From: an uncultured Verrucomicrobiota bacterium
GTDB taxonomy: Bacteria > Verrucomicrobiota > Verrucomicrobiia > Limisphaerales > AAA164-E04
Direction: 5' to 3'
Assembly (NCBI GenBank): GCA_964415055.1
Contig: CAYPZD010000008.1
Coordinates: forward strand, 12,838 to 76,837
DNA length: 64,000 bases
Part shown: positions 16,355 to 61,257 of the stretch, piece after piece
Layout of the letters: each line of letters opens with the position of its first letter
How positions within the stretch are numbered: position 1 is the stretch's first letter
The notes under the pieces: generated by a model
Databases searched by the model: none
The model's input: only the letters and a program-made list of their open reading frames with translations
Told to the model about the DNA's origin: nothing
Made by a program: the position numbers and the translations under genes

Positions 16355-16995
16355 CCTGACTAAGAGCAGGTCCGGTATCCTTGATTATCTCTTGCCAACA
16401 TGCGCTAATACGTACTAAGTTCCTTAGGTAACCTGAATAAGACTAAACGAACGGAAGTGGCCCAAAAGGAGGATTTTGTGGAACCTTTATGGTCTTTAAG
16501 AATTTTAGAGAGCGCTAATGCAATGCGCATGCTGTTGAGCTACCGGCATTTTCAAAATCCATCATTTTGGAAACGTGCTATCCGCAGGCTCGACCGTTTT
16601 ATCGTACCATCCTAAGGATGGGCGAAACACGTGTTGAAGCGGAATTGAACCTGCTACATGATCTGGCATCAGCAGAATCCTTGGAAAATCTGGAAGGGAT
16701 GATCAATGGCGTCTACTTCGCCACCTACCTGAGAACCCTCGGAGTTTTCCGTAAAAAACTAAAACTGCGTCTTTCGGGAACAAGAATCGTTAAAGCGGCT
16801 CGATCTGTTTTTGAGTCCTGACATGACACAGCTTCCGGATCATTGCCGCTCCGGTTCCCTAATAAGCAGCATACCGACTTGTTCAAGGGCACAGGAACAT
16901 GCTTGATCAAAGCCACTTTACCCTTCACGATAAACCAAATATCCATCATGGCGTTGATTGAAAAGAAAGCTCCATGATGAAATGTGCTTTTGATC

Positions 16996-20118: not shown

Positions 20119-20149
20119 TTCAATAATTTCCCATTCACTTACAAAACCT

Positions 20150-44074: not shown

Positions 44075-45715
44075 TCAACGACTCTCTGAAATGCGAGCAC
44101 TCGGATCGTAATTTGGATTTACCGGCATCATCCGGACATTTGTTTCATTCCGCCAGTCCCTCAACTGCGAAAGCAATCGCTTAACCACATCAGGTCTTTG
44201 CGTTGCCAAGTCATTTTGTTCGCCGGGATCATTATGAAGATCGAACAACTGAACCGATCCGTTTTCAAAGTATTCCAATAATTTGAATGCGCCTTTTCGA
44301 ATAGCCCCTCCCGGGCTTTGCATGCCATGGTTGCTGTAATGAGGGAAATGCCAATAAAGAGCATCCCGATCCACAGTGGTTTTTCCGGCAAGATATGGAA
44401 CCAGACTGATTCCATCCAGGAAGTGATTCCCATTTTTGGAAAGGCCCAGCATATCCAAAATGGTGGGATAAAAATCCACTCCAATGACCGGCTCATGACA
44501 CTTATACTCTGTGAAAGGAACGTGCCCCGGCCACTTGATGATGAGCGGCACCCGGATCCCACCTTCATACAACCAACCTTTGGCGCCCCTCAGCGGATGA
44601 TTGGATGTGGCATACGCTCCATCCAACCGATCCGGCGAAACCACCCGATTGGGACGACCAAAATTGGCGGCTGCCATTCCCCCGTTGTCTGAGGTGAAGA
44701 AGAGGATCGTGTCATCTGTCAATCCAAGCTCCTCAAGCTTTGCCATCACACGCCCCAAACTCTCATCCATACTTTCCACCATGGCTGCAAACTGGGGATT
44801 ATCCTGTCTCTGCTTGATCTTGACGGTCTGATCCGGCAGCACTCGATATTGTGATTTGTAAGGTTCTTGAAGCATGAATTGATCCAGGTGACTTCTTTCA
44901 AATGCGAGTTCCGCATCGGGATTTCCCTCCAAAATAAAGGGTTCAGGATCGGCCGGCAGCCTTGATCTTTTAGTTTCGTATTTCTCGACCAGATCGCTTG
45001 GGCCTTGAATGGGGTCATGAACAGCAAAGTGTGACAGATACAAAAAGAACGGCTGTTCTTCGCTGGATTCAATGAACTTCAACGCCTCATCCGTCAGTAC
45101 GTCCGTTAGGTAAGCTCCATCTTCATCCTCCAGACCAGTCATATTGAACGGTGAATGGTATCCCGACCTTGGCCACCCTTTGTTCCAGTCGGTAGGAACA
45201 CGCACATCGAACCCCTGCGCCAGTGGCCCATAGGGTTCTTCGCCCAGATGCCACTTCCCAAAATGTCCGGTACGATATCCATTTTCTTTGAGTGTTTCGG
45301 CCAAAGTAATTTCTTCCAAAGGCAAAGCCTGCTTAATGGCTGCATTGCTCAGCTTTTGAAATGGAAACTCACGCCTTCCGGGCAACCAATCGGTGAGCTG
45401 CAATCGGGCGGGATATTTTCCCGTCAAAATACTGGCCCGCGATGGGGAACAAACATGACAAGTCGCATAGGCATCCGTGAAATGTACCCCTTCTCTGGCC
45501 AATCGATCTACGTTGGGCGTGTCATAAAAAGGACTGCCGTAACACTTCAGATCATTCCATCCAAGATCATCGACCAGAAAGAAAACGATATTCGGCTTGG
45601 CATTTCCTCCCAGCATAGACAGGTCTCCATGCATGGCTGCCAGCAAGATCATTAGAAGAAAACTGCGGATCAAACCGGCAAAATGACTCCACAGTAGCTC
45701 AAGATTCGTTCTCAT
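44075..45715 (-). CDS. arylsulfatase A-family sulfatase
   Basis: NIVFFLVDDLGWND and the signature CSPSRASILTG, with overall sulfatase colinearity and a signal/anchor at the N-terminus. Confidence 0.9.
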   Translation of the reverse strand: MRTNLELLWSHFAGLIRSFLLMILLAAMHGDLSMLGGNAKPNIVFFLVDDLGWNDLKCYGSPFYDTPNVDRLAREGVHFTDAYATCHVCSPSRASILTGKYPARLQLTDWLPGRREFPFQKLSNAAIKQALPLEEITLAETLKENGYRTGHFGKWHLGEEPYGPLAQGFDVRVPTDWNKGWPRSGYHSPFNMTGLEDEDGAYLTDVLTDEALKFIESSEEQPFFLYLSHFAVHDPIQGPSDLVEKYETKRSRLPADPEPFILEGNPDAELAFERSHLDQFMLQEPYKSQYRVLPDQTVKIKQRQDNPQFAAMVESMDESLGRVMAKLEELGLTDDTILFFTSDNGGMAAANFGRPNRVVSPDRLDGAYATSNHPLRGAKGWLYEGGIRVPLIIKWPGHVPFTEYKCHEPVIGVDFYPTILDMLGLSKNGNHFLDGISLVPYLAGKTTVDRDALYWHFPHYSNHGMQSPGGAIRKGAFKLLEYFENGSVQLFDLHNDPGEQNDLATQRPDVVKRLLSQLRDWRNETNVRMMPVNPNYDPSARISESR

Positions 45716-45724
45716 TGCGTAGCT

Positions 45725-48157
45725 CTAATAGTATTTGAATTGCACGGAGACAATCGCTTCTTTATCGCACCGGGCCCTCACCCAATAGGCGCTGTATCCC
45801 TGCAGGAAACGGTGGTGTAAATTCTTGCCACCCGTGGTTTGGAAGGTTTCATAGGGCAACCACACTCCTGTCCCATCCACGTCCACTTCCAGGCTGACGT
45901 TCGCATCGCGGTCTGACCAGATTTTGAGTTGTTTATGGTCATACCCGGTCATCAGATAAGGATCGGACGGTTCACCGGGCTTGACCTCAGTTTCCATCCA
46001 CGGTCCACCCTGACCACGTGGTTTTCCCAATCGCCACAAATCATCCACCACGCCCGCCCAAACAGCAGCTTTCCCATCCTCACTGCGAAATATACGGTCG
46101 CTTTCGGTGGAATCATCCATGCCGGTGAAAAACAGCAAACCGTTGTGCGAGCAAAAATCATGGATACGCAGCTGATGAGTGGCGATGGGACGCATCTTCG
46201 CCAGCCCCTGGGCATTGCGCGCAGGAAGTTCGTAGAACGTTCCGTGAATATTCAACAAATCCCGTTCAGTGGCTACCTCACGACAAACTCGAGCCAGGGA
46301 AAATCCGCTTTTATTCGATGCATCTCCATAAGCATCCATCCTTGGCAGTCGATATCGCTTTCCATCTTCTTCGATCACGATGGAAGCGTTATCGACAGAG
46401 TATGCTTTCGCGGGCTGGCTCACGTCGGAGACCAGTTGATGCATGGCAGCCGGATCGTCGACGGGTTTCAACTCCATACTCGATGTCAGAGCGTAAAAAC
46501 CGGCATCATCACCCGAAGCATTGGACGAAGCCACAACCCCCAATCGATCATGCGCAAGACTTCGCATCAAACCGTAGCTCTTGGCTTGAACTTCGCCAGA
46601 AGCCACGCCATCAAATATCGCGTCATTCCTGGTGCGACGGGTGTCTTTGTTTCGATACTGAAAGTGGGCAGTGACATCCTTGGCATCCGACAGGGTTCTT
46701 ACTCGAATCCATGTCCCGGCTTCATCGGCACTAAAAAGATAAGAATGGTTTCCCTTGGGCCCAATGGTCCATGTATGAATCCTGGTCCATTGGTCATTCC
46801 CTTTCTGATCTGCTTCCAACTCCACCGTGATCTCTTCGTCAGACTGATGTTGCAGATGGATCTGCCGATAATCGTATCCTGAAAACAGATACGGATCGCT
46901 CACCTGCCCTGCCTTCACATCATCACGCAACCAAACCGAACCCCGGCCAATTGCCGGTCCCAAATGATCCAATCTTTCGGGCTCGACACACCATAGATTG
47001 GAATTGGATTGCTTGGGTGATCCATGAGCAGCCTTGAACGAGCGTTTGTTCAGGAATTCGGCACGTGCCGAATCATCGCAACCCATCACCACACGATCGC
47101 CCCACCGACAAAAATCACCCACCACTTTCAGGTAATTGGATCTCGGGGCAATTCCCGAAGATTGATGCCTGGAGAATGCTTTTGGAAACTTCCAGAACGT
47201 TCCATGCATCGTAGCCAGCAAATCTTCCTCGCCAATTTCCCGAATCCTTGGCCATTCGGTATTCCACCCGTGCGAACCATCGTAACTATGGCTTCCTTTC
47301 GGCAGGCGATAAAAGGTCCACTCCTGATCTTCCAGCAATCCCAATATCAGCGAGCGGGCATCCCACCCAAAAGTCCAAATCGGATCTTTATCGGGGTGTT
47401 GGTTTCCATGAATACCACCCGGCCCAGTCACTTCACAAAATTGATTGCGCCGAATCATCTGCCAATCCCCTCCCCCTGTCCAGCGAGCCAGGGATCCGGA
47501 TGCGATGGTCGGATCACGACCGACGTCCGGATGACGTTCTCCGTTATTGGCATAAATCAACTGCCCCTGACCGGAATACATCCCTTTGCCATGGTATCCG
47601 GGCAATTTCGAGACCAAGCCCACAGCCGGCGCTCCGGAATTGCCGTCCCGAATGAAACAGCTTACATCCAAGGTTCTCAAATCCACTTCATATAATCCCT
47701 CCTCCATGGTTGCATAATACACCTTGTGCTCGGGATCGCTCAGATGACGTGCGTTGGCGGTCAATCGACCGAACATTTTATCCGGGGAAATGACACGAAT
47801 TTCACCCTGCGCGTTGATGACATAAGGACCGATCAGCAAGTGTTGGGATTCAGAATGAATCATTCGGTTCGCCGGGGTTCCTCCGACACTGCCCTTGAAA
47901 ATGATTTGGTCCAGGTCAGGCGTTATTTCGTAAAGTTTATCCGTCGAGCCACCCGGCTGATGCGGAGCATATGTAACGGCCCATAACCTGCCTTGCCAGG
48001 GTACCACTGCGCCTGTCCCGCACTCATTCTCATCGTTCCACATGGTCAGATGAGGGTAAATACCTGAAATTTGAATGGGATGCGGATCAGCTCCATACAA
48101 GTTCACCAGATAAAACTGAGAACAGATCAACCAGATACAGAACACACGAAAATTCAT
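45725..48157 (-). CDS. secreted 810-aa protein of unknown family with an internal duplication
   Basis: It has a signal peptide and its stop is 9 nt upstream of the sulfatase start. Two approximately 175-aa units can be aligned by eye (aa 318-501 and 638-810). I recognised no family. Confidence 0.8.
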   Translation of the reverse strand: MNFRVFCIWLICSQFYLVNLYGADPHPIQISGIYPHLTMWNDENECGTGAVVPWQGRLWAVTYAPHQPGGSTDKLYEITPDLDQIIFKGSVGGTPANRMIHSESQHLLIGPYVINAQGEIRVISPDKMFGRLTANARHLSDPEHKVYYATMEEGLYEVDLRTLDVSCFIRDGNSGAPAVGLVSKLPGYHGKGMYSGQGQLIYANNGERHPDVGRDPTIASGSLARWTGGGDWQMIRRNQFCEVTGPGGIHGNQHPDKDPIWTFGWDARSLILGLLEDQEWTFYRLPKGSHSYDGSHGWNTEWPRIREIGEEDLLATMHGTFWKFPKAFSRHQSSGIAPRSNYLKVVGDFCRWGDRVVMGCDDSARAEFLNKRSFKAAHGSPKQSNSNLWCVEPERLDHLGPAIGRGSVWLRDDVKAGQVSDPYLFSGYDYRQIHLQHQSDEEITVELEADQKGNDQWTRIHTWTIGPKGNHSYLFSADEAGTWIRVRTLSDAKDVTAHFQYRNKDTRRTRNDAIFDGVASGEVQAKSYGLMRSLAHDRLGVVASSNASGDDAGFYALTSSMELKPVDDPAAMHQLVSDVSQPAKAYSVDNASIVIEEDGKRYRLPRMDAYGDASNKSGFSLARVCREVATERDLLNIHGTFYELPARNAQGLAKMRPIATHQLRIHDFCSHNGLLFFTGMDDSTESDRIFRSEDGKAAVWAGVVDDLWRLGKPRGQGGPWMETEVKPGEPSDPYLMTGYDHKQLKIWSDRDANVSLEVDVDGTGVWLPYETFQTTGGKNLHHRFLQGYSAYWVRARCDKEAIVSVQFKYY

Positions 48158-49960: not shown

Positions 49961-51676
49961 TCAGCGGACCAACCAGAGAAAACCTCCGATCATTGCAGCA
50001 ACCGCAACCCAGGAGAGCAGGAACCCAATCACAGAAATGCGCGAAGGAACGGGTAATTCAAAATCACTACCTGCAAACCAACACCGACGTGTCGCGGGCA
50101 GGGTCCCCTCCGGCAATTGACAACTCTCGGTGATCACTTCTCCGGAGCGAACCGGGGTTCGGATCAAGTCATGGAAACGATTCAGTAAATCACTGTCTCT
50201 GCGAGGTGTAATCAAACTCGCCAGGACACCCGCCACAATCGCTGCAGACAGGTAAAAAACAATCTGCCAGGGTTCGGAGATGCTGGATTTCGTCGCGCTA
50301 TGCACCACCAGGTTCCATGTTTTGGACACTGGAAGAGATTGAACCCATTCAACCATTCGCGGCTGCAGGGTCAACCACCACACAACAAATCCCGTCAGAG
50401 TGCTGGCCCAGGCTCCAAACCCATTGAATCGTTTCCAAATAAGCCCGATCCAAAATGCAATCCCTAGCATCGGGGCTATTTTCAACCAGGTCTTGAGTCC
50501 GGAAACCACATTAGGCATCCAGAACGCACAAGCCACTCCCCCCAAGACAATCAACAACGACACCACCCGTCCTACGGCAAGGTAATGTTGAGGCGTGCGT
50601 TCTCGAACAATCGGTTTATAGAGGTTTTCGGTGAACAGTCCGGACGCGGCAATCATCATGGAATCACACGAACTCATGACTCCTGCAAGCAACGAAGCCA
50701 GGAATAACCCCAACATTCCAGGCATCGCCTTGGGAAGAAATTCAGCCGCCATCTGCCCGTAGACCTGGTCCGGTTGCACCTCCGCCAAATCAGTGCCCTG
50801 TTGCATATACCACGCCAATGCCGCAATCCCGGTGACCGCCCAGGCAGCCGTGCAAATACGTTTAATCAGATTACCCACCACAAATCCAAAGCGACCATCC
50901 ATCTCGGTGCGACCTGCCGCACAAACACCCATGATGAAGGGTTGAGCCACAATCCCGACCAATGAAAGGATGGCAAAGGTTCCAATAAAAAAGGGAGTGA
51001 TACCCGCCGGAGCAACCATGGAAAGCATGCCGGGATCCTGAATCGTTTCACGCACGCCCTGCAATCCACCCACCGCGGACAGCACCCAGGGAAGGAGCAT
51101 CACCGAAAACAGGACCGTCAGAATGCCTTGGATATAATCCGTCACAATGGCGGCCCCCAAACCGCCGGCCATTCCGTAAACCACGAACAAGACGGCCACC
51201 ACGGGCATTGCAACGGAAGTGGAAATAGCGCCTTGCGTGCCCGATTCTATGAGAGCTCCCGCGCCTTTAAGCAACAGGCCAATTTTAACCGAAAGCCCGA
51301 TCATACCCACCAGAGCAAACAGCACCGCCACACTGGATCCAAAACGCAGTGCATACACATCAGCTGTGGTGGTGGCTCGAAATCGTCGAAAAATCGGTGC
51401 CAGCAGCCAGTAAAACGGAGTATTAAATAACCACAACCACTGATACCAGATGCCGGACAAACCCTGACGAAACGTCCCTGAGGCAACCACCACCGCCTGA
51501 TCCGATGCAGTCCCCGTGCCGAAGGCATGCATCATCATCATGCCCTTGCCAAACTTACGTGGCATGAAAAATTCCGACTGCTTTTGGATCCCCTTCCCAA
51601 GACGAATCCCAAGCCAGGTGATCCCAAGCAAATACCCCACGATGACCGCCCAATCCACCATTGGCATATTACCCAT
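49961..51676 (-). CDS. sodium:solute symporter (SSF) family transporter
   Basis: 571 aa with about 13 TM segments and SSF-like N-terminal blocks (VDWAVIVGYLLGITWLG, FFMPRKFG). Confidence 0.85.
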   Translation of the reverse strand: MGNMPMVDWAVIVGYLLGITWLGIRLGKGIQKQSEFFMPRKFGKGMMMMHAFGTGTASDQAVVVASGTFRQGLSGIWYQWLWLFNTPFYWLLAPIFRRFRATTTADVYALRFGSSVAVLFALVGMIGLSVKIGLLLKGAGALIESGTQGAISTSVAMPVVAVLFVVYGMAGGLGAAIVTDYIQGILTVLFSVMLLPWVLSAVGGLQGVRETIQDPGMLSMVAPAGITPFFIGTFAILSLVGIVAQPFIMGVCAAGRTEMDGRFGFVVGNLIKRICTAAWAVTGIAALAWYMQQGTDLAEVQPDQVYGQMAAEFLPKAMPGMLGLFLASLLAGVMSSCDSMMIAASGLFTENLYKPIVRERTPQHYLAVGRVVSLLIVLGGVACAFWMPNVVSGLKTWLKIAPMLGIAFWIGLIWKRFNGFGAWASTLTGFVVWWLTLQPRMVEWVQSLPVSKTWNLVVHSATKSSISEPWQIVFYLSAAIVAGVLASLITPRRDSDLLNRFHDLIRTPVRSGEVITESCQLPEGTLPATRRCWFAGSDFELPVPSRISVIGFLLSWVAVAAMIGGFLWLVR

Positions 51677-52607
51677 GATCCGTTCCTCCCTTTGATTGAT
51701 GACGATACAGGGCAGCCACCGAGCTGTTATCCATCTGCCCCAGTCCCATTTGCTGCGCCTGCTTCAACAACTCGGCGTGCAATGAGGTTAAAGGGACATT
51801 CAATCCCTTCGATGTCGCCTCTTCCAACATGATTCTCACATCTTTGAAATGCTGTGAAAGTCGTGCCTGAGGCGGTTCAAAATTCCCTCGAACCATGCGT
51901 TCCCCTTTGGATTCCATCACCCCGGAAACGGCAGGGGTTTGCTTGAGCACTTCCAAAGTTTTCATAGGATCGATCCCCAGAACATCAGCAAACGCCAGCC
52001 CCTCGGCCAACACCATTCTGTGAAGCCCCAGGATCATGTTGTGAACTAACTTGAATCGAGAGGCAGCCCCCACTCCACCCAAATAAAACGGCTTGCTGGT
52101 CAGATCATGTATGAGTGGCTTCAGTGATTCGAAAATCACGGATTCACCTCCAAAAAACATCGCCGCTTTTCCTTCCCGCATCAGTTCACTTGAACCGGCA
52201 ACATTGGCTTCCAGGTAATGAACACCGACATCAGAGAGATTTGCCGACAACTGTTCCATTTCCTCCGGCTTACCCGTCGTCGCATCCAGGACAATTTGAC
52301 CGGAACAAAATTTGTCAAGGTTTTCCCGAATCAACTGAAGCGCTACAGAGCTGTTCGGAAGACAGAGCATGATCACATCCGCATGACCCAACAAATCATT
52401 GAGGGAAGCCATCACTTCAACGGCTTCCACCTGGAACGGGTTAAGATCAAAACCAGACACCTTCCGCCCACTCCGAACAAGCTTTTGTGCAATCGCGCTC
52501 CCCAACAAACCAACACCCACAATCCCTATCGGTTTGGCAGGGGCTAAAACAAGATCAGAGATATGCGATAACTTGGAACATTCGGTCATAACTGGAACGC
52601 GCGACAT
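51669..52607 (-). CDS. NAD(P)-dependent beta-hydroxyacid dehydrogenase family oxidoreductase
   Basis: Rossmann motif IGIVGVGLLGSAIAQKL and a 6PGDH-like NAD-binding plus all-alpha C-terminal domain. Its stop overlaps the symporter start by 8 nt. Confidence 0.8.
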   Translation of the reverse strand: MSRVPVMTECSKLSHISDLVLAPAKPIGIVGVGLLGSAIAQKLVRSGRKVSGFDLNPFQVEAVEVMASLNDLLGHADVIMLCLPNSSVALQLIRENLDKFCSGQIVLDATTGKPEEMEQLSANLSDVGVHYLEANVAGSSELMREGKAAMFFGGESVIFESLKPLIHDLTSKPFYLGGVGAASRFKLVHNMILGLHRMVLAEGLAFADVLGIDPMKTLEVLKQTPAVSGVMESKGERMVRGNFEPPQARLSQHFKDVRIMLEEATSKGLNVPLTSLHAELLKQAQQMGLGQMDNSSVAALYRHQSKGGTDHG

Positions 52608-52755
52608 ATAACAAAGGAATCAACCTGCCTGCAATCATAGTATTCCCGGGAGGTGACATATCTACGTTCATCTTCGTCCTCTCCAAGATTCCACGAATAC
52701 GGTGATGCGGTTCAAGAACGCTCCCTAAATCAATAAAAGACTTTTTTCCGCTGAC

Positions 52756-52772
52756 ACTACTACCGTAGTAGT
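52756..52772. promoter_or_regulatory. perfect 8+1+8 palindrome, candidate BlaI-family operator
   Basis: ACTACTAC-C-GTAGTAGT, 19 nt upstream of the blaI-like ATG (52791). It contains a TAC...GTA core reminiscent of BlaI/MecI/CopY boxes. Confidence 0.45.
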
Positions 52773-52790
52773 ATTAATTCGGTCGTAGCA

Positions 52791-53195
52791 ATGAAAACAA
52801 AAGCCACCACTCCTCCTCCCCGTCGATTGGGCGACCTTCAGTTGCGCATCATGAAAATACTATGGGAACAAGGTTCAGCTAGCGCAGGCGATGTGCGTAA
52901 AGCCTTGATCCCGGTAAAAGATCTCGCCTACACCACCGTGGCCACGATGCTTCGCAAGATGGAGGACAAGGGCTTGGTGACCCACACCACTCAGGATCGG
53001 ACTTATATCTACACACCACTCGTGAAAGAAGATTCTGTCTCAAAAAGCCTGGCAGGTGAACTCCTCGACAAACTGTTCGAAGGAAATCTCGCCGGCATGG
53101 TGAGTCACTTGCTCACTGCCAAGGATGTCAGTCACGAGGAACTCGAAGAACTGGAAGCATTGATCCAATCCAAAAAGAAAGAGGCCAAATCATGA
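52791..53195 (+). CDS. BlaI/MecI/CopY family transcriptional repressor
   Basis: 134 aa with the winged-helix blocks LQLRIMKILWEQGSASAGDV and AYTTVATMLRKMEDKGLV. ATGA overlap with the downstream M56 gene. Confidence 0.85.
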   Translation: MKTKATTPPPRRLGDLQLRIMKILWEQGSASAGDVRKALIPVKDLAYTTVATMLRKMEDKGLVTHTTQDRTYIYTPLVKEDSVSKSLAGELLDKLFEGNLAGMVSHLLTAKDVSHEELEELEALIQSKKKEAKS

Positions 53196-56100
53196 ACACC
53201 GATTTCCTAAGCCTGGCCCAGGAATCGGCCACTTTACTCGGTATCCATATTACCTGGATACTTTTGTTGACTTTGGGAGCATCCCGCTGGATCCACCACA
53301 TCATCCTCCAACGCACCCTCTGGCGCAGTACGTTCCTTGCAATATTGCTACTTTTGGGAAGCACATTCTCGGGCCTCTACCAATGGAACTGGATGTCCGG
53401 GGCCTCATTACATACCGTAGACCAGGCTTCCCAGTGGAAACCGATGCAACTGGTCTCGGATTCTATCGCGACAACTTCCATTCAACCAGAAGCACCTGTC
53501 ATCCAAATCCGAGATGCCAAAGCTCCTTCCGCTACGGCAACTACGACAACGGTATTTTTGCTGCAGATTTGGTTCCTCGGGATGGCAATCACTTCCGGTT
53601 TAATGATATTCAATGCCATGATCTGGCGCATTCGAATATTCCGCAAGGCATCACCCGCATCCTCCAATCTCCGATATCTTTTCAAGCAAGCGGCCAAATC
53701 ACTGAACTACCGTCGCATTCCACAATTGATCGAATCGCCCAGTATCAGGAGTCCTTTGGTGATGGGATGTTTCAGACCGGTGATCGCATTTCCAGTTGAT
53801 CATGCAAACCTTTACAACGCGGACGAGCAACACCTGATCATGTCGCATGAAATCGCACACCTGCGTGAAAAGGATGGATGGTGGCAATGCCTGGCCAATT
53901 TGGCCTGCATGGCGGCCTGGTGGCATCCCTTGGTATGGATCGCACGTCAACGTCTGCGTCAATGCGCAGAAGAAACTGCCGACAACCTCAGCACACACAA
54001 CACAACACACCGCGAACAACTGGCCTCCTGTCTGGTGCGCATCGGTCGAGAACTCAACGCCACGCGCTGCCCCGGTGCCCCATCGATTTTTGGAGCAGGT
54101 TTCCGCTCTCAACTTGGTAAACGCGTTGAACGGCTGATCCAACACGATCCTTCTTGGAACGAAAGACCGAAAGGAGTCCTCTGGATATCCCTTCGTCTTG
54201 CAGCGCCCCTTCTTCTCATCGGAGCGATGTTTTCTACCGCATCCTGGTTTGGGACTTATTCCGGATCTAACGCATCTGATTCAATTCGACACTCCGTTGT
54301 TGGGCTGATGCTGATGGCAGAAGAGGAAGGACCTCCTTATGAGTTTCCTGGTAAAGTAGAGGAAAGCTTAGCATCCGAGATTGAAGCAAGATTGAAAAAA
54401 ACGGTCATCCCAACATTTAAATACGATGAAGAAAACACTTATGAGAATTTAAAAAAACTGCGCAAAGCCATTTTGAGTGTCGAACCAACTTGGGAAAACT
54501 TGACCATTAACCTCAGATCTCCTTCGTTGGTGGGTTCTGTTGACACAAGCAAATCAGAAGACAAATCAAGTGATCCTGAAGGGATTAAAGCTGAACTAAG
54601 CACTCATATCATAGGCTACATTCAATTTGGCCCGGCTAAGGAAATTCCAAATCATATCCCTCCATATCAGCGATTGATAAAAGAATCAGATTTTCTAGGA
54701 ACGTCAAAAAGTAAAAATATAGAAAAGCCCCATACCCCAAAGATTACGGAACTAGCAAACGAAACTGCCTATGATTTGCTATTCAAAATCATGCAGCCCT
54801 ATCAAATAACAAACCATCATTACTTTGCAAAGGACATGGTGATATTTGATGTAGGTAAAATGATAACAGCGGGATACTACTCCAGCCAGGAAAATGAATC
54901 CCAAACATCTCCAACAACCTCACCCCAGTTTGAGGGACCTCCCGCACCAATCACAGCATCACCGTTAAACGCTGCTAAAGCAGAGGTGCCAGAATTCTAC
55001 ACAAGGGTCTACAAAACGAATCCACCATCTTTTCTGCAACGCATCATGGCCTTGTCTGGTTCATTAAACACGTCACAAAGTCCTGGTGACTCTGATATTC
55101 AAAAAACAGTTCACAAATTCATCTCCAATCTCGGCATAAAGAACATATCAGAAACTGCAGTTTCAAGTTCCGTAGGACCGGCGCACAACGATGCGTCCGC
55201 TTTGAGAACAATACAGGACGCCAAAGCCATTTTTTATAACGATCGAAACGGTAAACTCTTTACGCGACTCACACTCGAAGACCATGACAAACTCGAAGCA
55301 GCACTCGCTCTTCTTCAGGACCCTGCCGAACGGAATACCAAGATCGCTATGAACATGCATGTGGTGCAACTGAATGAAGCCGGCATCAAGACTTTGAAAG
55401 AGTTTGGATTTGATACCACCACTCAGGATTCCGGTCAGTTTGAACACACCATCGATACCCCCACTTTGGAACGATTACTGTTGCGAATGAACCTTGCGCC
55501 AGGTGTCGACATTCTCCAGTCCCCTCGAATCACCGCATTAAACGGGCGACAGTCCGAACTGAAAGCCCAGGAACTGAGACGCATCGTCACAACCAACGAA
55601 ACCGGCAACATTCAGACGGAGGAAATCGCAACCGGTCCGTCATTGAGTGTGATTCCAAAAATCCAGGCGGATGGCAAATTGCAGATAACAGCACACTTTG
55701 AGTTGCTGGAATTTCTTGGCTACGACGATCCAGGTTCCTTTCGCATCGTTACACAAAACAGTCATCAACAAAACAATGCTGACCTACCCAACAAGAAACC
55801 GTCATTCACCGGCAACTACCAGGAAATGTTGAAAGAAATGGACTTGGCCCCCAAACGCGAAATTCCAAATGTCATTCTGAAGTATATGCCCAGTCAACTG
55901 AAACTAAAGCAACTCAGCAACGAACTGGAAACCGCTCAACAAACCAAGGCTCAACTTGAAGCAAAGGTATCAAAGAACGCCAAAGACACCATCAACACTC
56001 AAAGAAACCTTGCCGCAGTAAAAGCCTTGATCCCGGCATTTCAAAAACAACTTGATCAAGAAGTCGCCAGCATCAGGCGCCATATCCTTGCACAAATGGA

Positions 56101-56416
56101 CAGTCAAAATTTTAACGGGAAAAGTGTTAACCCAACCGAATCAGGCATCATCACTGCGTCAACAAACGAGTCAGCAGAAAACACTCCTGTTCCGTTACCT
56201 AGATTCAATCGACTCAAATTGAACACCAATACATCCCTCCAATCAGGTCAAACACTGATCATGGGCGGCCTCAAATCAACCGAAACCGTCCAATGGAAAG
56301 ACAATGTACTCGTCATGAGTAAAATCCCACTCCTCGGAGGCATGTTTCGACGAGAAGGCACCAGCACCACGGAACAATACATCTACATCCTGATCACGCC
56401 AACAATCCTGGAGTAG
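53192..56416 (+). CDS. M56 (BlaR1-like) zinc-metalloprotease sensor fused to secretin N-like domains and a secretin C-terminal domain
   Basis: aa 1-355 have four TMs and the cytoplasmic HEXXH (SHEIAHLREKDGW, 53846-53860). aa 600-720 have FYTRVYK...AIFYNDRNGKLFTRLT, which is secretin-N-like. aa 760-840 and 1000-1074 carry the secretin signature (DILQSPRITALNGRQSE..., LPRFNRLKLNTNTSLQSGQTLIMGGL, SKIPLLGGMFRR...YILITPTILE). Confidence 0.8.
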   Translation: MNTDFLSLAQESATLLGIHITWILLLTLGASRWIHHIILQRTLWRSTFLAILLLLGSTFSGLYQWNWMSGASLHTVDQASQWKPMQLVSDSIATTSIQPEAPVIQIRDAKAPSATATTTTVFLLQIWFLGMAITSGLMIFNAMIWRIRIFRKASPASSNLRYLFKQAAKSLNYRRIPQLIESPSIRSPLVMGCFRPVIAFPVDHANLYNADEQHLIMSHEIAHLREKDGWWQCLANLACMAAWWHPLVWIARQRLRQCAEETADNLSTHNTTHREQLASCLVRIGRELNATRCPGAPSIFGAGFRSQLGKRVERLIQHDPSWNERPKGVLWISLRLAAPLLLIGAMFSTASWFGTYSGSNASDSIRHSVVGLMLMAEEEGPPYEFPGKVEESLASEIEARLKKTVIPTFKYDEENTYENLKKLRKAILSVEPTWENLTINLRSPSLVGSVDTSKSEDKSSDPEGIKAELSTHIIGYIQFGPAKEIPNHIPPYQRLIKESDFLGTSKSKNIEKPHTPKITELANETAYDLLFKIMQPYQITNHHYFAKDMVIFDVGKMITAGYYSSQENESQTSPTTSPQFEGPPAPITASPLNAAKAEVPEFYTRVYKTNPPSFLQRIMALSGSLNTSQSPGDSDIQKTVHKFISNLGIKNISETAVSSSVGPAHNDASALRTIQDAKAIFYNDRNGKLFTRLTLEDHDKLEAALALLQDPAERNTKIAMNMHVVQLNEAGIKTLKEFGFDTTTQDSGQFEHTIDTPTLERLLLRMNLAPGVDILQSPRITALNGRQSELKAQELRRIVTTNETGNIQTEEIATGPSLSVIPKIQADGKLQITAHFELLEFLGYDDPGSFRIVTQNSHQQNNADLPNKKPSFTGNYQEMLKEMDLAPKREIPNVILKYMPSQLKLKQLSNELETAQQTKAQLEAKVSKNAKDTINTQRNLAAVKALIPAFQKQLDQEVASIRRHILAQMDSQNFNGKSVNPTESGIITASTNESAENTPVPLPRFNRLKLNTNTSLQSGQTLIMGGLKSTETVQWKDNVLVMSKIPLLGGMFRREGTSTTEQYIYILITPTILE

Positions 56417-56449
56417 CCGCATTCGTCAGAATGTGCCCCCCCGAACAAA

Positions 56450-56473
56450 CCACGCGTAGGCAAGCGCAGCCAC
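56450..56473. repeat. 24-nt motif copy A (CCACGCGTAGGCAAGCGCAGCCAC)
   Basis: Identical at 20 of 24 positions to copy B, which lies 86 nt downstream in the same convergent spacer. Confidence 0.5.
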
Positions 56474-56535
56474 AACAGTAGCTGCCTTCGCCAAAAGGTG
56501 GCCCGCACACCCCAAGGCATCCCTTCCCCACAACT

Positions 56536-56559
56536 CCACGCTTTGGCAAGCGCCGCTAC
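56536..56559. repeat. 24-nt motif copy B (CCACGCTTTGGCAAGCGCCGCTAC)
   Basis: Direct repeat of copy A. A related TTTGGCAA-R-CGC core also occurs at 43935-43956 in another convergent spacer. Confidence 0.5.
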
Positions 56560-56574
56560 GGTGTTCTCCCGCTA

Positions 56575-58197
56575 TCAATCCTGATGCATTCGCTGGCGTT
56601 TAGGCGTTTGATTTTTTGAGCCAGCTTGGGACTTTTGCTTCTGAGCAACTGATTCCAAATACGGCCGCAGGCATATCGGCTGATCACTGCGCCCTGTTCG
56701 TTGATAGTCCACCCAAAGTGTTTCGGCAACGGTTTGCGGTTCCAAATTGATTTGTTCGGTCAGGTAATGAAACACATAGGCGACCAGCTTGGTCAGGGCA
56801 ATCCCGTGACGGTTTCCCGTGCTCCCATATAACCAATCACTAAACGCCATAAAGGAGTCAAAAGGGTTTTGCGTCTTGCTCCAAATCAACGAAACAGTGC
56901 CGATGAAGTTCCCACTGTTGCCGACAAGATCCCAATATCGTGCAAATCGTTTGATGCGCTGCAAGTCCTCAAAGCATAGGTGCTGGTTCTTTATAATCTC
57001 ATACGGCGGCTCCTCATCATAGACCATGTTGTATGTTTGATCGTGACGCACGATCGGCGTGCCCCTTAGCCGCTTCAGGATTCCAATCTGGATTTCATGG
57101 GGGTTCAACTCAATGAGCTGATTGAACCCCTGTCCAAAGGATACAAAGTCTTCACCAGGCAGTCCCGCGATCAAATCCACATGCAGATGAACCCCTGTTT
57201 CCTGCCGCAGAAACCGAATGTTGTCTCTAGTTTTCTCAAGGTTCTGTCGTCGACTGATGTTGTTGGCCACCTCATCGTTGAATGTTTGAATACCAATCTC
57301 AAATTGAACCGATCCTTTGGGGAATTGCTGAATCAACCCGCGAAGCGCTTCCGGCAATCGGTCGGGTATCATTTCGAAATGCAGGAAGAGCCCCGGTTCA
57401 TAGAGATCCAGAAAACTTTGCAGGATAGTGGTTCCGGTCTTGATATTCAGATTGAAGGTGCGATCGACAAATTTGAAATGCCTGACGCCCCGATCGAACA
57501 GTTTCTTCATGGCCTCCATGAAGGATTCAAGCTCGAAAGCACGCACTGGGACATCCAGAGAAGACAGACAGAATTCACAGGTGAACGGACAACCCCTCGA
57601 AGCTTCCACGTAAATGATCCGATTTTTGATATCATCGTCGGTATAAGTGTGGTAAGGAAGTTGGATTTCACTCAAAGCAGGCGTGGGAGAATGAACGATC
57701 TTCGGATGGACCTCAGGCTCCTTATGTGATTCTGAAATCAAATTCCGGCATAACTGATAGAAAGTCACATCCGCTTCCCCCGTCACGACATAATCGACAC
57801 CTTTGAGCCAGTCCTGGGTATTTGTTTCGTAACTGACTTCAGGTCCGCCCAACACAATCTTCAGCGTCGGCCGAATTTTCTTCAGGAGCTGAACCAGGTA
57901 TTTGATTTGGGAAACATTCCAGATATAAACTCCCAAACCGATGATTTCCGGTTGGCGACTGAGAATGCGTTCGGCGACATCAACCATACGTTGGTTGATA
58001 TCAAACTCAACGATACCCGCCTGGTCCTGCAGTTCTCCCAAATTGGTATAGAGATACCGCAGTCCAAAAGATGCATGGATGTATTTCGCATTGATTCCGA
58101 CCAAAAGAATCCTGTTGGAGCATGAGGTTTGATCATGCGCTCCGTTTGCCTGTGATTCCAATGGCATATCAGTACCCGAGAGGCGCGTTGGATGCAT
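56575..58197 (-). CDS. B12-binding-domain radical SAM protein (DUF4080-type C-terminus)
   Basis: 540 aa with an N-terminal cobalamin-binding-like Rossmann domain (ILLVGINAKYIH), the radical SAM motif ASRGCPFTCEFCLS (CX3CX2C), and a long C-terminal extension. Confidence 0.8.
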   Translation of the reverse strand: MHPTRLSGTDMPLESQANGAHDQTSCSNRILLVGINAKYIHASFGLRYLYTNLGELQDQAGIVEFDINQRMVDVAERILSRQPEIIGLGVYIWNVSQIKYLVQLLKKIRPTLKIVLGGPEVSYETNTQDWLKGVDYVVTGEADVTFYQLCRNLISESHKEPEVHPKIVHSPTPALSEIQLPYHTYTDDDIKNRIIYVEASRGCPFTCEFCLSSLDVPVRAFELESFMEAMKKLFDRGVRHFKFVDRTFNLNIKTGTTILQSFLDLYEPGLFLHFEMIPDRLPEALRGLIQQFPKGSVQFEIGIQTFNDEVANNISRRQNLEKTRDNIRFLRQETGVHLHVDLIAGLPGEDFVSFGQGFNQLIELNPHEIQIGILKRLRGTPIVRHDQTYNMVYDEEPPYEIIKNQHLCFEDLQRIKRFARYWDLVGNSGNFIGTVSLIWSKTQNPFDSFMAFSDWLYGSTGNRHGIALTKLVAYVFHYLTEQINLEPQTVAETLWVDYQRTGRSDQPICLRPYLESVAQKQKSQAGSKNQTPKRQRMHQD

Positions 58198-58238
58198 CCC
58201 TTTTTAAGCCTGGCAATATTAACAAAAGCCGTATCGAC

Positions 58239-59735
58239 TCACACTTTCCCCTGCTTTCTCCAGCGATACAAGGTCGTTGGGTGAATCCCCAACTGCGCGG
58301 CAACCCATCCCAGATTGTTATCAGATTGGACCAGCAGGTCACGGGCAAGAGCCATTTTCTGTTTGGGAGAGAGAGCGGGTGTCGAGGGCCAACCGGTCAT
58401 TTGTTGATTGGGATACCCACCGGCTGCCTGCATGGGAGCTCCGCCAGCAGGCTGAGGAGCGTAGCCACCCGGTTGCCCCGGCATGGGCTGGAATCCTCTT
58501 TGTCCAGCGTCCCCTCCCGGCACATAATTTTCCTGCAGTTGTTGTCCGGGTATGCCACCGTTCATCGCTGCGGAAGCGTTCTGCGAACCTCCCTGCTCCG
58601 ATGCGGAAATAGGTTTTTCCCACCACGCAGCCCGCAAGACCGGGCCATCATGCAAGACCACCATGCGGTCGATCTGACTTTTCAGTTCACGCACATTACC
58701 AGGCCAATGATAAGCCTGAAATGCCTGCACCAGCTCAGGTTCAATCCCGTCGAAATGTTTCCCGAATCGCTCACTTGCCATGTCCAGGAAGAGTTTCACG
58801 AATTGCGGAACATCATCATTGTGCATGCGCAGAGGGGGAATCCTCAGTGTGATTTCGGAAAGACGGAAATAAAGGTCGGTACGAAAATTATGGCGTTCGG
58901 TTTCGTTGTCCAGATTTCGATTCGTCGCTGAGATCACGCGAACATCAATGGGATAATCTTCCGTCCCTCCGATTCGGCGCGCTTTTCGTGTTTCCAGAAA
59001 GCGCAGCAACTTGGGTTGGAGTCCCATGTCAAGCTCCCCGATCTCATCCAGAAACAAGGTTCCACCGTTGGCTTGCTCGACCAGACCTTTCCTGGCTTTC
59101 ACCGCGCCTGTGTAGGACCCCTTTTCGGCACCGAACAATTCGGCTTCGATCAAGTCTTTGGGAATGGCGGCACAATTGACCGCGACAAAAGGTTCACGTC
59201 CGCTGGATGCATGCAATGCCTGCGCAACGCGTTCCTTACCAACACCCGATTCACCCAGAATGAGAACGGTGGCATCGGTGGGGCCAAGCCGCTCGATACC
59301 TTGGCGCAGGTTCTGCATGGCGTAGGATTCACCTACCAATATGTCCTTGGATTCCAGCGTCTTTCCTCCGTATAGCTGAATCCACAGGTGTTGCGAATCG
59401 CATGCCTTTTGCAGAGCTTCCTTCCATCGTGCAACATCGTCTTCGAGATCCAGCACATCATAGGCACCGTCCCTCATGGAGTTGACTGTTTCCTGAGTGC
59501 CCATGTTGGAGCCAAACGCAATGTAGCAACGACTTGTCTGACTCAAACGCACACGAATGTGTGCCCATCGATCGTCTTGGGTACATTGGACAGGAATCAT
59601 GTACACGCTGTCATGCGTGTTATGGCTTAGTTCTTTGATCTGATCAGGTTCAAAAAACTGGCATCGATACCCCATGGAGGTGACCCAGGCTTCTGCCTTG
59701 CGGGACTCCGGGTGATTCAGGAGTTGAATAATCAT
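58239..59735 (-). CDS. sigma-54-dependent transcriptional activator (bEBP) with degenerate receiver domain
   Basis: AAA+ core with Walker A GESGVGKE, sigma-54 contact loop GSYTGA (GAFTGA variant), Walker B LFLDEIGE, and WPGNVREL. The C-terminal Fis-type HTH is AAQLGIHPTTLYRWRK. Confidence 0.85.
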   Translation of the reverse strand: MIIQLLNHPESRKAEAWVTSMGYRCQFFEPDQIKELSHNTHDSVYMIPVQCTQDDRWAHIRVRLSQTSRCYIAFGSNMGTQETVNSMRDGAYDVLDLEDDVARWKEALQKACDSQHLWIQLYGGKTLESKDILVGESYAMQNLRQGIERLGPTDATVLILGESGVGKERVAQALHASSGREPFVAVNCAAIPKDLIEAELFGAEKGSYTGAVKARKGLVEQANGGTLFLDEIGELDMGLQPKLLRFLETRKARRIGGTEDYPIDVRVISATNRNLDNETERHNFRTDLYFRLSEITLRIPPLRMHNDDVPQFVKLFLDMASERFGKHFDGIEPELVQAFQAYHWPGNVRELKSQIDRMVVLHDGPVLRAAWWEKPISASEQGGSQNASAAMNGGIPGQQLQENYVPGGDAGQRGFQPMPGQPGGYAPQPAGGAPMQAAGGYPNQQMTGWPSTPALSPKQKMALARDLLVQSDNNLGWVAAQLGIHPTTLYRWRKQGKV

Positions 59736-59743
59736 GTTTAGTT

Positions 59744-59759
59744 GTTGGTTGGTTGGTTG
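59744..59759. repeat. (GTTG)x4 microsatellite = (CAAC)x4 in the 5' leader of the bEBP gene
   Basis: Direct reading: GTTGGTTGGTTGGTTG, 9-24 nt upstream of ATG 59735 on the minus strand. Confidence 0.9.
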
Positions 59760-59771
59760 TTAGCATAGATC

Positions 59772-59787
59772 ACCAAAACACATGCCA
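59772..59787 (-). promoter_or_regulatory. weak sigma-54-like promoter upstream of the bEBP gene
   Basis: The minus strand reads TGGCAT-GTGTT-TTGGT. Spacing is correct, but the -12 element is GG instead of GC. It lies 37-52 nt upstream of the ATG. A palindrome CATTGCAATG (59793-59802) and the half-site CATTGCAA (59808-59815) lie just upstream. Confidence 0.3.
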
Positions 59788-59964
59788 GCGATCATTGCAA
59801 TGAAAAACATTGCAAACGCGAAACTGCAGCTGCGATTTTGCGACTTTTGCAGATGGAAGGTGCTCAACTGACTGCTCCACGGTTCCTGATTTATCGGCAT
59901 ATTTCAGTCTCCCCTCCAATAATTGCTTTCTCTAAAATGGCATATTTGATTCAATGCGCCCCTC

Positions 59965-61257
59965 ATGAAGATACTGGTGATTGGATCTGGAGGTAGAGAG
60001 CATGCATTGGTCTGGAAACTCGCTCAATCGAGCAACGTTTCAGCCATGTGGTGCGCGCCTGGTAACGGCGGGATTGCATTGGAAAAGCTTTCCAATAGTG
60101 GCGAACCCGTACAGTGCGTGAACATTGGCGCGGAAGATCTTGAAAAACTCCTGGACCTGGCAGACCAGATCAAACCCGACCTGACCGTTGTCGGCCCTGA
60201 CAATCCACTGTCGATGGGCATCGTGGACCAATTCCAAAAAGCCGGATTCACCATCTGGGGTCCAAATGCCCAGGCGGCCCAATTCGAGGCCTCGAAAGCT
60301 TTTTCACAGGAGTTCATGCAGCGCCACGATATTCCGACTGCCCGGTCAGGAATTTTCACAACGCCAACGGAAGCATTGGATTTCGCAAAATCACTCAATG
60401 GAAAATGCGCCGTCAAAGCAGATGGTCTTGCGCTCGGCAAGGGAGTGCTGATCACGGATACAATCCAGGAAGCAGAAGCTGCCATCCAACAAGTCATGGT
60501 CGACAAATCATTTGGCACCGCCGGCAATCAGGTCGTCATCCAGGAAAAACTCGAAGGTCTTGAGATATCCATGCACGCCCTCTGCGATGGCAAGCACTAC
60601 CTGCTTTTCGATACATCACAGGATCACAAACGTGCTCTCGACGGTGACGGTGGATTGAACACCGGAGGGATGGGCACCTACTCACCTGCACCTTTTCTTA
60701 ATCCGGAACAACTTCAGAACATCAGAGAAACAGTTCTCGACAGGTGGATGAGCGGCTGTCTCAAGGAGGGAATTGACTTCAGAGGCATGCTTTATCCGGG
60801 ACTGATGTTGACCCAGGATGGACCGAAAGTTCTTGAATTCAACGCTCGTTTCGGTGACCCGGAGACTCAGGTCTACCTCATGCGATTGAAAAACGATTTA
60901 CCGGAACTACTGCTGGCCAGCGCCGAAGGTCGACTCGAAGGAATGCAACTGGAATGGTCAGACCAAGCCTCGACGTGCGTGGTCATGGCATCGGGCGGGT
61001 ATCCCGAGGCCTACGCAAAGGGCAAGGTCATCGAAGGAATCGACCGTGCGGAGACAGATCCATCGATTAAAGTGTTTCACGCAGGGACAAAGTTAAACGA
61101 TGAAGGCCAATTACTCACAGCGGGCGGACGAGTGCTGGGAGTGACAGCTCTGGGGAGCGATTTAAGTGAAGCCACTCAAAAAGCGTACAAGGCTGTAGAG
61201 GAAATTCATTTCGAGGCTTGTCATTTTCGTCGTGACATTGCCGCCAAGGCTCTGTAA
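59965..61257 (+). CDS. purD: phosphoribosylamine-glycine ligase
   Basis: 430 aa. It starts MKILVIGSGGREHAL, has ATP-grasp blocks, and LEFNARFGDPE. Confidence 0.95.
   Translation: MKILVIGSGGREHALVWKLAQSSNVSAMWCAPGNGGIALEKLSNSGEPVQCVNIGAEDLEKLLDLADQIKPDLTVVGPDNPLSMGIVDQFQKAGFTIWGPNAQAAQFEASKAFSQEFMQRHDIPTARSGIFTTPTEALDFAKSLNGKCAVKADGLALGKGVLITDTIQEAEAAIQQVMVDKSFGTAGNQVVIQEKLEGLEISMHALCDGKHYLLFDTSQDHKRALDGDGGLNTGGMGTYSPAPFLNPEQLQNIRETVLDRWMSGCLKEGIDFRGMLYPGLMLTQDGPKVLEFNARFGDPETQVYLMRLKNDLPELLLASAEGRLEGMQLEWSDQASTCVVMASGGYPEAYAKGKVIEGIDRAETDPSIKVFHAGTKLNDEGQLLTAGGRVLGVTALGSDLSEATQKAYKAVEEIHFEACHFRRDIAAKAL

Follow-up and report, generated by a model that had tools for sequence, protein, structure and literature searches.

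Proteases of the BlaR1 type are usually treated as antibiotic or small-molecule sensors, and secretins as free outer-membrane channels for secretion and pilus machines. Signalling across the envelope is also carried out by systems of the FecA-FecR-FecI type, in which TonB-dependent transducers work with pairs of anti-sigma and extracytoplasmic function (ECF) sigma factors. In Synechocystis, the BlaI/CopY-family repressor PetR is degraded on copper by PetP, an M48/M56 membrane protease, which shows such proteolysis in a diderm without any beta-lactam sensor (10.1101/2020.07.31.226407). Fusions of M56 with TonB_C occur in Bacteroides, for example TonB1 and TonB10 of B. thetaiotaomicron, and are uncharacterised (10.1101/2023.07.07.548152). 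The locus described here lies in a stretch of 64,000 nucleotides (the window) from contig CAYPZD010000008.1 of an uncultured Verrucomicrobiota bacterium (assembly GCA_964415055.1). On its forward strand (+), to which all features of the operon belong, the gene of a BlaI/MecI/PetR-type repressor (52791..53195) is followed by a gene (53192..56416) which joins an M56 protease of the BlaR1 kind to a secretin module. The components and the regulatory logic are known. What is uncharacterised is their combination, in which an M56 signalling protease has a secretin for its extracytoplasmic module; a helical insertion at Gate 2 adds a further, clade-specific twist. Full-text literature searching found no paper describing an M56-secretin fusion.

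The M56 protease-secretin fusion and its family

The fusion gene is a single uninterrupted open reading frame (ORF) of 1074 codons plus stop, with no internal stop codon. A Shine-Dalgarno sequence, AGAGG, is located 8 nt 5' of its ATG, and the repressor ORF ends within its start in an ATGA overlap, the arrangement of translational coupling. The N-terminal module (53192..54256), delimited by Pfam, hydropathy, AlphaFold, Foldseek and conserved residues, comprises the transmembrane (TM) segments TM1-TM3, a cytoplasmic zinc-protease domain and TM4. Peptidase_M56 (PF05569) matches aa 20-268 with E 1.7e-31 and 110 bits, against a Pfam cut-off of 31. Four TM segments are visible in the hydropathy profile, at aa 12-30, ~40-62, 121-144 and 329-350 (TM4, 54176-54241). 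The loop of aa 145-330 holds 26 K+R and is therefore, by the positive-inside rule, predicted to be cytoplasmic, which places aa 355-1074 outside the cytoplasm. The zinc site HEIAH is found at aa 219-223 (53846-53860) and is followed by an E-x-x-A-D motif (E260, D264); among 53 family members there is no variation at E220, H223, E260 or D264, and H219 is kept in at least 90%. AlphaFold predicts aa 10-290 with a predicted local distance difference test score (pLDDT) above 90, TM4 also being confident, and Foldseek matches the fold to the cryo-EM structures of S. aureus BlaR1 at E ~6e-6 (8exr_A: TM-score 0.61, root-mean-square deviation 2.7 A, 171 columns). The module is thus predicted to have the BlaR1 topology of three TM segments, a cytoplasmic protease and a fourth TM segment, as the earlier note on this DNA, made from the letters alone, had proposed with the exact position of the HEXXH site. 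TM4 is oriented like a signal peptide, and the S-T-A/S-W after it (aa 349-353, ~54236-54250) may be a site for signal peptidase I. The NCBIfam models for BlaR1 and MecR1 proper remain below their cut-offs: blaR1_generic reaches 75.1 of 400 and matches aa 113-265 alone, and the MecR1 and BlaR1 exception models reach 27 and 12 of 1200. These scores, together with a C-terminus which is a secretin, rule out a true beta-lactam sensor.

Secretin (PF00263) passes in the C-terminal region with E 3.6e-21 and 75.9 bits (cut-off 27.5), split in two stretches. When the pieces were scanned separately, profile positions 8-76 fell on aa 772-833 and positions 98-168 on aa 1003-1073, the second piece alone reaching 59.8 bits. 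In HMMER alignments, aa 771-843 correspond to 432-510 of V. cholerae GspD and aa 1004-1073 to GspD 517-586, and the second piece also aligns to pIV 343-411. Part 1 of the domain (aa 717-844, 55340..55723; Pfam profile, GspD alignment, pLDDT ~90) contains the first outer-barrel strand, a short lip, a conserved helix, the Gate 1 region and an inner-barrel hairpin which ends in EFLGYDDPG. Part 2 (aa 1003-1074, 56198..56413; Pfam profile, GspD and pIV alignment) contains the strand after Gate 2, outer-barrel strands, a motif resembling the amphipathic helical loop (AHL) and the last strand. The canonical AHL motif, V-P-x-L-G-D-I-P-x-L-G-x-L-F, is present in the partial form KIPLLGGMF, with a helix at aa 1049-1052; across the family, 55 of 103 members have the canonical motif and 84 of 103 a looser form. 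EFLGYDDPG and PLPRF are C-terminal motifs of a PVC type, common to verrucomicrobial pilus-cluster secretins. The full protein was modelled with AlphaFold2 from an 85-sequence alignment (mean pLDDT 75.7), and the confident parts are M56 with TM4, aa 388-442 + 518-553, aa 603-708, the secretin strands of aa 717-844 and 1003-1073 (pLDDT ~90) and helices in aa 872-973. Searched with Foldseek against the PDB, this protein finds 40 secretin chains at the top (InvG, BfpB, PilQ, GspD, pIV, RcpA; E 2e-10 to 2e-6) and BlaR1 structures next. Profile, fold and comparative evidence therefore agree with the earlier recognition of a hallmark secretin C-domain and with its placing where BlaR1 carries a penicillin-binding sensor.

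The module fits none of the named secretin types. All NCBIfam secretin equivalogs stay below cut-off (GspD 58.6/250, PilQ 42.4/750, MshL 41.6/351, SctC 40.9/284, Amuc_1098 37.6/238), their matches being confined to the last ~80 residues, except for MshL with its best stretch at aa 894-1073. A cleavable signal peptide or lipobox, as needed for export of a free precursor, is absent, the N-terminus being the 355-aa four-TM protease. No genes of type II or type III secretion systems (T2SS, T3SS), type IV pili (T4P) or Tad were found among the neighbours or the 20 largest ORFs of the window, which rules out a secretin belonging to a local secretion or pilus cluster.

Two alpha/beta domains, aa 388-442 + 518-553 and aa 603-708, are predicted by AlphaFold ahead of the secretin. 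The second, an N3-like (divergent Secretin_N) domain delimited at aa 601-708 (54992..55315), has the order beta-alpha-(loop)-beta-beta-alpha and corresponds to the family-wide conserved motif LxTRxYKVDP...FxNDRxGxLxVRAT..DL..IE. Among the Pfam models whose use the earlier note had suggested, Peptidase_M56 and Secretin match and Secretin_N (PF03958) finds nothing in the window protein; aa 356-643 and the piece between the secretin halves have no significant Pfam family. The orthologous N3-like segment gives weak Secretin_N matches in 14 of 23 relatives (best 2.4e-4), the window protein's own segment none, and a profile of this segment has no secretin match among PDB sequences. With a separate model of aa 385-716, Foldseek ranked mostly secretin N-domains (N0/N1) first, none of them significant (best E 0.043). 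The secretin-N-like repeats that had been proposed are thus partly supported for the second domain, as N3-like, and the first is not demonstrably Secretin_N. Canonical Secretin_N is present in larger relatives (P0094, 62 bits) and in P0006.

An ORF of such composition could be an assembly or frameshift artefact, or a decaying pseudogene joining two unrelated genes, and the existence of M56-deleted versions at the orthologous locus of two relatives may be taken in favour of this explanation. Against it stands the recurrence of a product of identical length, seen in 14 or more independent assemblies: of the 29 members in the 90%-identity cluster of the window protein, 15 are listed, and 14 of these, from JGI, ENA, Logan and NCBI assemblies, are exactly 1074 aa. 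Moreover, the fusion architecture with both Pfam domains is kept in orthologues at 86, 71, 44, 35 and 30% identity, M56 and Secretin both pass in 53 of 53 sampled members, and the ratio of nonsynonymous to synonymous substitution rates (dN/dS) is well below 1 in all segments. An assembly or frameshift artefact is ruled out by this recurrence across assemblies and relatives, and any origin of the gene by error or decay is extremely improbable. The coordinates that the earlier note gave for the gene were all correct, the C-terminus is significant as a secretin, and the frame is not split by a frameshift or stop and recurs as a single one in many assemblies.

On sequence evidence, the window protein is one clade of a large M56-secretin fusion family and no one-off. 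With a profile built from six fusions, HMMER found 1298 proteins at E <= 1e-30 in an exhaustive search of 1.84 billion representatives. Segment hidden Markov models place M56, the N-domain and both secretin halves in 101 of 144 tested top 50%-identity representatives, and all 101 keep HEXXH. Family proteins range from ~650 to 2437 aa, and their source annotation is 'hypothetical protein' or a generic BlaR1-type transducer. Six loci with M56 and secretin in one ORF, all from Verrucomicrobiota metagenome-assembled genomes, were found among 80 loci of species-representative genomes, a survey based on a generic HEXXH peptide pattern, in which most loci are ordinary M56 genes and fusions are under-sampled.

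Some members and relatives show further domains. A Poly_export (Wza-like) module is located between M56 and secretin in P0197 (2043 aa), and canonical Secretin_N occupies this place in P0094 (2437 aa). In P0007 and P0008 the secretin part is degenerate and without the AHL region, P0007 having also a weak, sub-threshold TPR match. In P0074 (586 aa, L090 579-2339), carried only by a single short contig, regions 2 and 4 of an ECF sigma factor occur together with a TM segment, a coiled coil and a secretin-like domain of PVC type that lacks AHL. Here a regulator of a second kind is joined to a secretin-like module.

Gate 2 insertion and periplasmic tether

The two halves of the secretin domain are separated by ~158 residues, in which an insertion of ~140-160 aa is placed between the strands of aa 830-844 and 1003-1016 (aa 845-1002, 55724..56197). 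AlphaFold predicts helices at aa 872-885, 888-898, 903-924 and 930-973 (pLDDT 87-96), with disordered linkers on both sides. The insertion has no significant family and gives only weak Pfam matches of coiled-coil type. An insertion splitting the secretin domain had been read at 55715-56191 in the earlier note, with which these coordinates and the four predicted helices agree. Its position was determined by mapping to GspD and pIV. The numbering of the GspD chain was checked in the entry of the G453A mutant, which has A at position 453, and the offset for Gate 2 was fixed by the Gate 1 hinge, where pIV G267 equals GspD G453. Gate 2 of pIV, D321-N335, then corresponds to GspD S505-A519. The insertion falls between GspD A510 and R517, which puts it at the tip of Gate 2, a loop that extends into the channel from the inner barrel.

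The spacing from EFLGYDDPGSFR to PLPRF is 12-26 residues in the closest insertion-free relatives versus ~150 in the window protein. For 103 family members the median length of the corresponding gap is 17 aa, with 30 aa at the 95th percentile, and lengths of 144-169 aa are reached only in the clade of the window protein. The contiguous beta-domain with a short Gate 2 loop is therefore not found in the window protein, and, judged from these alignments, it is the coiled-coil insertion alone that is clade-specific, not the M56-secretin fusion itself. As the insertion sits in a loop that points into the lumen, it argues against a free conduit in this clade. If a ring forms, 12-15 helical hairpins would fill the lumen or extend from it, which makes a freely conducting channel unlikely there.

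A break near Gate 2 is also known from the closest stand-alone relatives of the C-terminal half. These are 194-aa proteins with a signal peptide (43-46% identity), encoded directly after an 801-aa Amuc_1098-like gene in the verrucomicrobial PilM/Amuc_1100 pilus-like cluster (L003 5571-8585; L004 3706-6720). The two ORFs are in frame with each other, with one stop codon between them. On the GspD model of 600 positions, the match of the 801-aa protein ends at 474 and that of the 194-aa protein runs from 465 to 591, so that the pilus-cluster secretin appears to be split in two genes near Gate 2, at almost the position of the window insertion. In Akkermansia, the homologue Amuc_1098 was found in the outer membrane (PMC4960237).

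The region between TM4 and the N3-like domain forms a tether, of which ~135 residues are predicted to be disordered (aa 356-386, 445-476, 481-513 and 560-596; AlphaFold). Across the family its length has a median of 247 residues and a 5th-95th percentile range of 75-831. The N3 domain and barrel of pIV together measure 96 A (PMC8563730); with this dimension and the ~135 disordered residues, an envelope-bridging geometry is feasible. Most of the tether coincides with an AT-rich cassette (54352..54950, aa ~388-587), which has no Pfam match and is delimited by its GC content, its identity to the orthologue L088, synonymous divergence (dS) and AlphaFold. It encodes the first alpha/beta domain (388-442 + 518-553), split and flanked by disordered linkers. 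The GC content is 0.39-0.44 at ~54350-55100 versus 0.48-0.56 in the flanks, and 0.39-0.41 within the cassette, so that the AT-richer central third described earlier is real. Nucleotide identity to L088 is 0.90-0.97 up to 54350, falls with sharp breakpoints to 0.44-0.62 with many gaps in 54352-54950, returns to 0.93-0.98 until ~55580 and is lower again over the insertion. The cassette is ~90% identical to the orthologue L089 versus 44-62%, with many indels, to L088, and dS against L088 is 1.27 in the cassette versus 0.11-0.12 in the flanks. The fusion gene is thus a mosaic, with the AT-rich third as a strain-variable and probably exchanged cassette. This pattern points to recombination or hypervariability in the periplasmic tether and the first alpha/beta domain. 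Because the cassette encodes exactly these strain-variable elements, it is a candidate specificity determinant.

Selection on the segments was estimated by the Nei-Gojobori method, with the window gene compared with the two intact orthologues L089 and L088. The dN/dS values are 0.09-0.15 for the secretin halves, which are under strong purifying selection, 0.21-0.23 for the N3-like domain, 0.27-0.45 for M56, 0.32-0.52 for the linker of aa 356-589 and 0.39-0.66 for the Gate 2 insertion.

The repressor gene and a possible derepression switch

The gene which overlaps the start of the fusion gene encodes a winged-helix repressor of 134 aa. Penicillinase_R (PF03965) matches its aa 13-126 with E 4.6e-32 and 111 bits versus a cut-off of 22.6, and the BlaI-like repressor with its ATGA overlap, as previously noted, is therefore confirmed. 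The NCBIfam models for BlaI, MecI and CopY all leave the repressor below cut-off. A CopY/TcrY copper repressor is rejected at 75.3 bits versus 121.95, the CxCx4CxC site of this type being absent and the C-terminal tail containing no Cys.

Upstream of the repressor gene, a -35-like hexamer CTGACA (52751..52756; TTGAC in 8 of 11 related loci) is located directly 5' of a dyad, a position conserved in 11 loci. This operator dyad, OP1 (TACTAC-CGTA-GTAGTA, 52758..52773), belongs to a perfect 17-nt palindrome (52756-52772) and, with its position conserved in the 11 loci, is the presumed repressor site. A weaker dyad, OP2 (TATTAA-TTCG-GTCGTA, 52772..52787), begins 14 nt after OP1 and stops 4 nt short of the ATG; it fits TACTAC-N4-GTAGTA at <=3 mismatches, and most related loci have it at the same offset. 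The dyad TACTAC-N4-GTAGTA occurs once in the 64-kb window, at the operon's own promoter, where 0.04-0.11 occurrences were expected. The layout of TTGAC(A), dyad and second, weaker dyad (TATTAC-N4-GTCGTA) 14 nt further on is kept in 11 of 11 loci examined, the repressors of which are 50-95% identical to that of the window; the related loci include L001 (~3165-3200), L002 (~9555-9600), L005, L007, L008, L010, L012, L013, L015 and L016. Read from sequence, such a layout is the classical picture of an autoregulated BlaI-type operon. A promoter and terminator scan with a consensus scanner gave no more calls than chance and did not call this conserved promoter.

In 9 of 9 fusion loci a BlaI-type gene is placed directly upstream, with a start/stop overlap wherever this could be read. 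Since the flanking genes are wholly different at distant loci, the repressor and the fusion form a self-contained functional unit. In the window, the neighbours of the fusion are an SSF symporter, a dehydrogenase, a radical-SAM enzyme, a sigma-54 activator and purD. The window also has content typical of PVC bacteria, namely a PSCyt1/PSCyt2/PSD1 protein followed by a DUF1501 protein, two sulfatases and a GH141-like beta-helix protein (16984-21580; 36458-38410; 44075-45715), and an 810-aa ORF (45725-48157, -) without Pfam match.

At the syntenic locus of two relatives, with the same set of neighbours as in the window (49961-61257), the protease was deleted independently (L005 5269-7887; L006 2926-5544; L007 5587-8022). 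In L005 and L006 the repressor is retained (95% identical), aa 1-88 persist as a remnant of 106 codons, and a 628-codon ORF equal to aa 316-1074 stands in another frame; in L007, 41 repressor codons and M56 fragments from aa 224 on are left with a 673-codon ORF. Both ORFs start just before TM4, which is signal-peptide-like there, and encode the whole secretin part with the insertion. Their AHL motifs, KLPLPGSMF and KIPPLRGPF versus KIPLLGGMF, have undergone non-conservative changes, and one of them shows a dN/dS of 0.64 in the first secretin half versus 0.09-0.15. These derivatives could be secondary stand-alone secretins or young pseudogenes, and the AHL changes together with the raised dN/dS hint at decay.

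On the sequences and predicted structures of family members, we lean towards a proteolytic derepression switch of the BlaI/BlaR1 type, similar to PetR/PetP, in which the tethered secretin serves as the extracytoplasmic module. The steps that we infer are the binding and the cleavage of the repressor, the formation of a ring, its insertion in the outer membrane and the transfer of a signal through TM4. The dimeric BlaI-like repressor would bind the two overlapping dyads, which lie 3' of the -35 element and 5' of the start codon, and so shut its own operon. The fusion protein is predicted to insert in the inner membrane by four TM helices, with the zinc protease in the cytoplasm. The ~250 largely disordered, strain-variable residues with their small alpha/beta domain would tether the N3-like domain and the beta-domain, and the secretin part would, most likely, oligomerise into a ring which engages the outer membrane or inserts in it, so that the polypeptide would bridge the envelope. 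A change in the state of the ring may then alter the conformation or oligomeric state of M56, upon which the repressor would be cleaved and the operon, along with other dyad-bearing promoters, derepressed. Candidate changes are ring assembly, engagement of the lumen or gate (which in this clade would be plugged or extended by the helical Gate 2 insertion), a partner bound at the variable cassette, and mechanical perturbation of the envelope. Cleavage of the repressor by the M56 protease is indirectly supported by the invariable pairing of the two genes, and it is plausible that one polypeptide spans the envelope and reports outer-membrane events. A bolder form of this proposal, which we hold only tentatively and rather doubt, is a trans-envelope machine made of a single polypeptide, in which each subunit of a 12-15-copy outer-membrane ring would be tethered to its own inner-membrane M56 and ring events (gate entry or pulling, surface contact, phage, failure of envelope integrity) would lead to repressor cleavage, the Gate 2 helices acting as a luminal or surface-exposed sensing plug.

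Several observations weigh against the switch in the form which we prefer. A secretin normally travels to the outer membrane through the periplasm in free form, once its signal peptide has been cleaved, and one that is permanently tethered to a four-TM protein is, to our knowledge, without precedent. The candidate cleavage site after TM4 would uncouple the protease and secretin halves. The lip is very short, ~28 residues from strand 717-727 to helix 756-768 versus 36 in phage pIV and 51-80 in T2SS secretins, and both an S-domain and a pilotin are missing. The lumen would be crowded if fifteen subunits each placed a 140-aa helical insertion there from Gate 2, and the window contains no dyad-bearing target besides the operon itself. 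The absence of the AHL motif from P0007, P0008 and P0074 indicates that a secretin-like domain can exist without its membrane-interacting element. Such observations would also fit a rather unlikely alternative with the same protease-repressor logic, in which the secretin-like module stays periplasmic and never enters the outer membrane, acting as a ligand- or protein-binding sensor or by co-assembling with, or docking on, a true T4P or type II secretin ring whose state it reports. The AHL-less relatives, including the ECF-sigma fusion, the short lip and missing S-domain, and a Gate 2 insertion hard to fit with a normal gated pore are all in its favour, as are the canonical AHL motif in just over half of the members and the 194-aa 'half secretins', which must pair with a partner. 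However, it is exactly the barrel and AHL part that is under strong purifying selection, the full secretin domain is kept in all the sampled members, the window protein retains the AHL-like IPLLGGMF, and we know of no monomeric soluble secretin beta-domains.

The loss of the protease with an open secretin ORF in two relatives suggests, also against the preferred switch, that the secretin half may have a function of its own. In a clearly improbable explanation built on this, the functional product would be the secretin, with the M56 part needed for its biogenesis instead of for signalling; TM4 would be an internal signal-anchor or signal peptide, signal peptidase or M56 self-cleavage would free a stand-alone secretin, and the repressor would merely autoregulate the amount of secretin. 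The orientation of TM4 and the S-T-A/S-W that follows agree with this, as do the independent deletions which left a signal-peptide-like start and a complete secretin ORF, and autoregulation is the only regulation visible. A mere anchor, however, would need neither the invariant HEXXH and E-x-x-A-D nor a repressor gene that is always present, and in the truncated derivatives the AHL motif is damaged and one first secretin half appears to decay. Moreover, we know of no cleavage after TM4 of BlaR1.

A conserved and selected M56-secretin family, always accompanied by a repressor of a cleavable type, implies unstudied envelope-spanning signalling or secretin regulation, and this in Verrucomicrobiota, an abundant and poorly characterised phylum. 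The compact two-gene cassette with its recognisable operator makes the question directly testable, the operator being a ready motif for regulon searches, and offers a handle on what M56 proteases with sensor domains other than penicillin-binding ones (TonB_C and others) detect. If the trans-envelope machine were true, secretins would be signalling receptors as well as conduits, and the ECF sigma-secretin and M56-Poly_export-secretin fusions would be variations on one principle. Specialists in secretins and in BlaR signalling would find the design surprising, and it is not unique to the window.

Comparison with known systems

With BlaR1/MecR1-BlaI/MecI of S. aureus, the locus shares the four-TM M56 gluzincin with a cytoplasmic HEXXH and downstream E-x-x-A-D, an extracytoplasmic domain after TM4, a Penicillinase_R gene in the operon and dyad operators at the promoter; the tandem-operator layout resembles the staphylococcal bla/mec operators. 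Unlike BlaR1/MecR1, it has a secretin where those proteins carry a penicillin-binding sensor of the class D beta-lactamase-like type; its protease gene overlaps the end of a repressor gene that precedes it, the cassette is not accompanied by a target gene for beta-lactamase or PBP2a, and its host is a diderm. With the secretins GspD/PulD, PilQ, InvG, f1 pIV and the PilQ Amuc_1098, the window protein has in common a predicted N3-like domain, a beta-domain with Gate 1 and Gate 2 and an AHL-like motif. However, its N-terminus is a four-TM protease, it has no cleavable signal peptide or lipobox and no S-domain, the lip is very short, Gate 2 carries a helical insertion of 140-160 aa, and no secretion or pilus genes were found next to it or among the largest 20 ORFs of the window. 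As in the FecA-FecR-FecI type, an outer-membrane event would be relayed to an inner-membrane protein and regulated proteolysis would alter transcription; there, separate polypeptides and a sigma-factor output are involved, whereas here it would be one polypeptide with a repressor output.

In host and gene arrangement the locus is similar to PetR/PetP, which also belongs to a diderm and has the repressor gene first, a stop/start overlap and a four-TM protease with cytoplasmic HEXXH; its non-antibiotic signal and small specific regulon, which includes its own operon, would be further points of likeness (10.1101/2020.07.31.226407). PetP differs in having no extracytoplasmic C-terminal domain, whereas ~720 residues follow TM4 in the window protein. 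The M56-TonB_C fusions of Bacteroides provide a precedent for the architecture, as in both cases an inner-membrane M56 is joined to a C-terminal domain which normally contacts outer-membrane machinery across the periplasm. In those proteins, however, this domain is a small TonB domain binding TonB boxes, and in the window protein it is a secretin, a domain that forms oligomeric beta-barrels.

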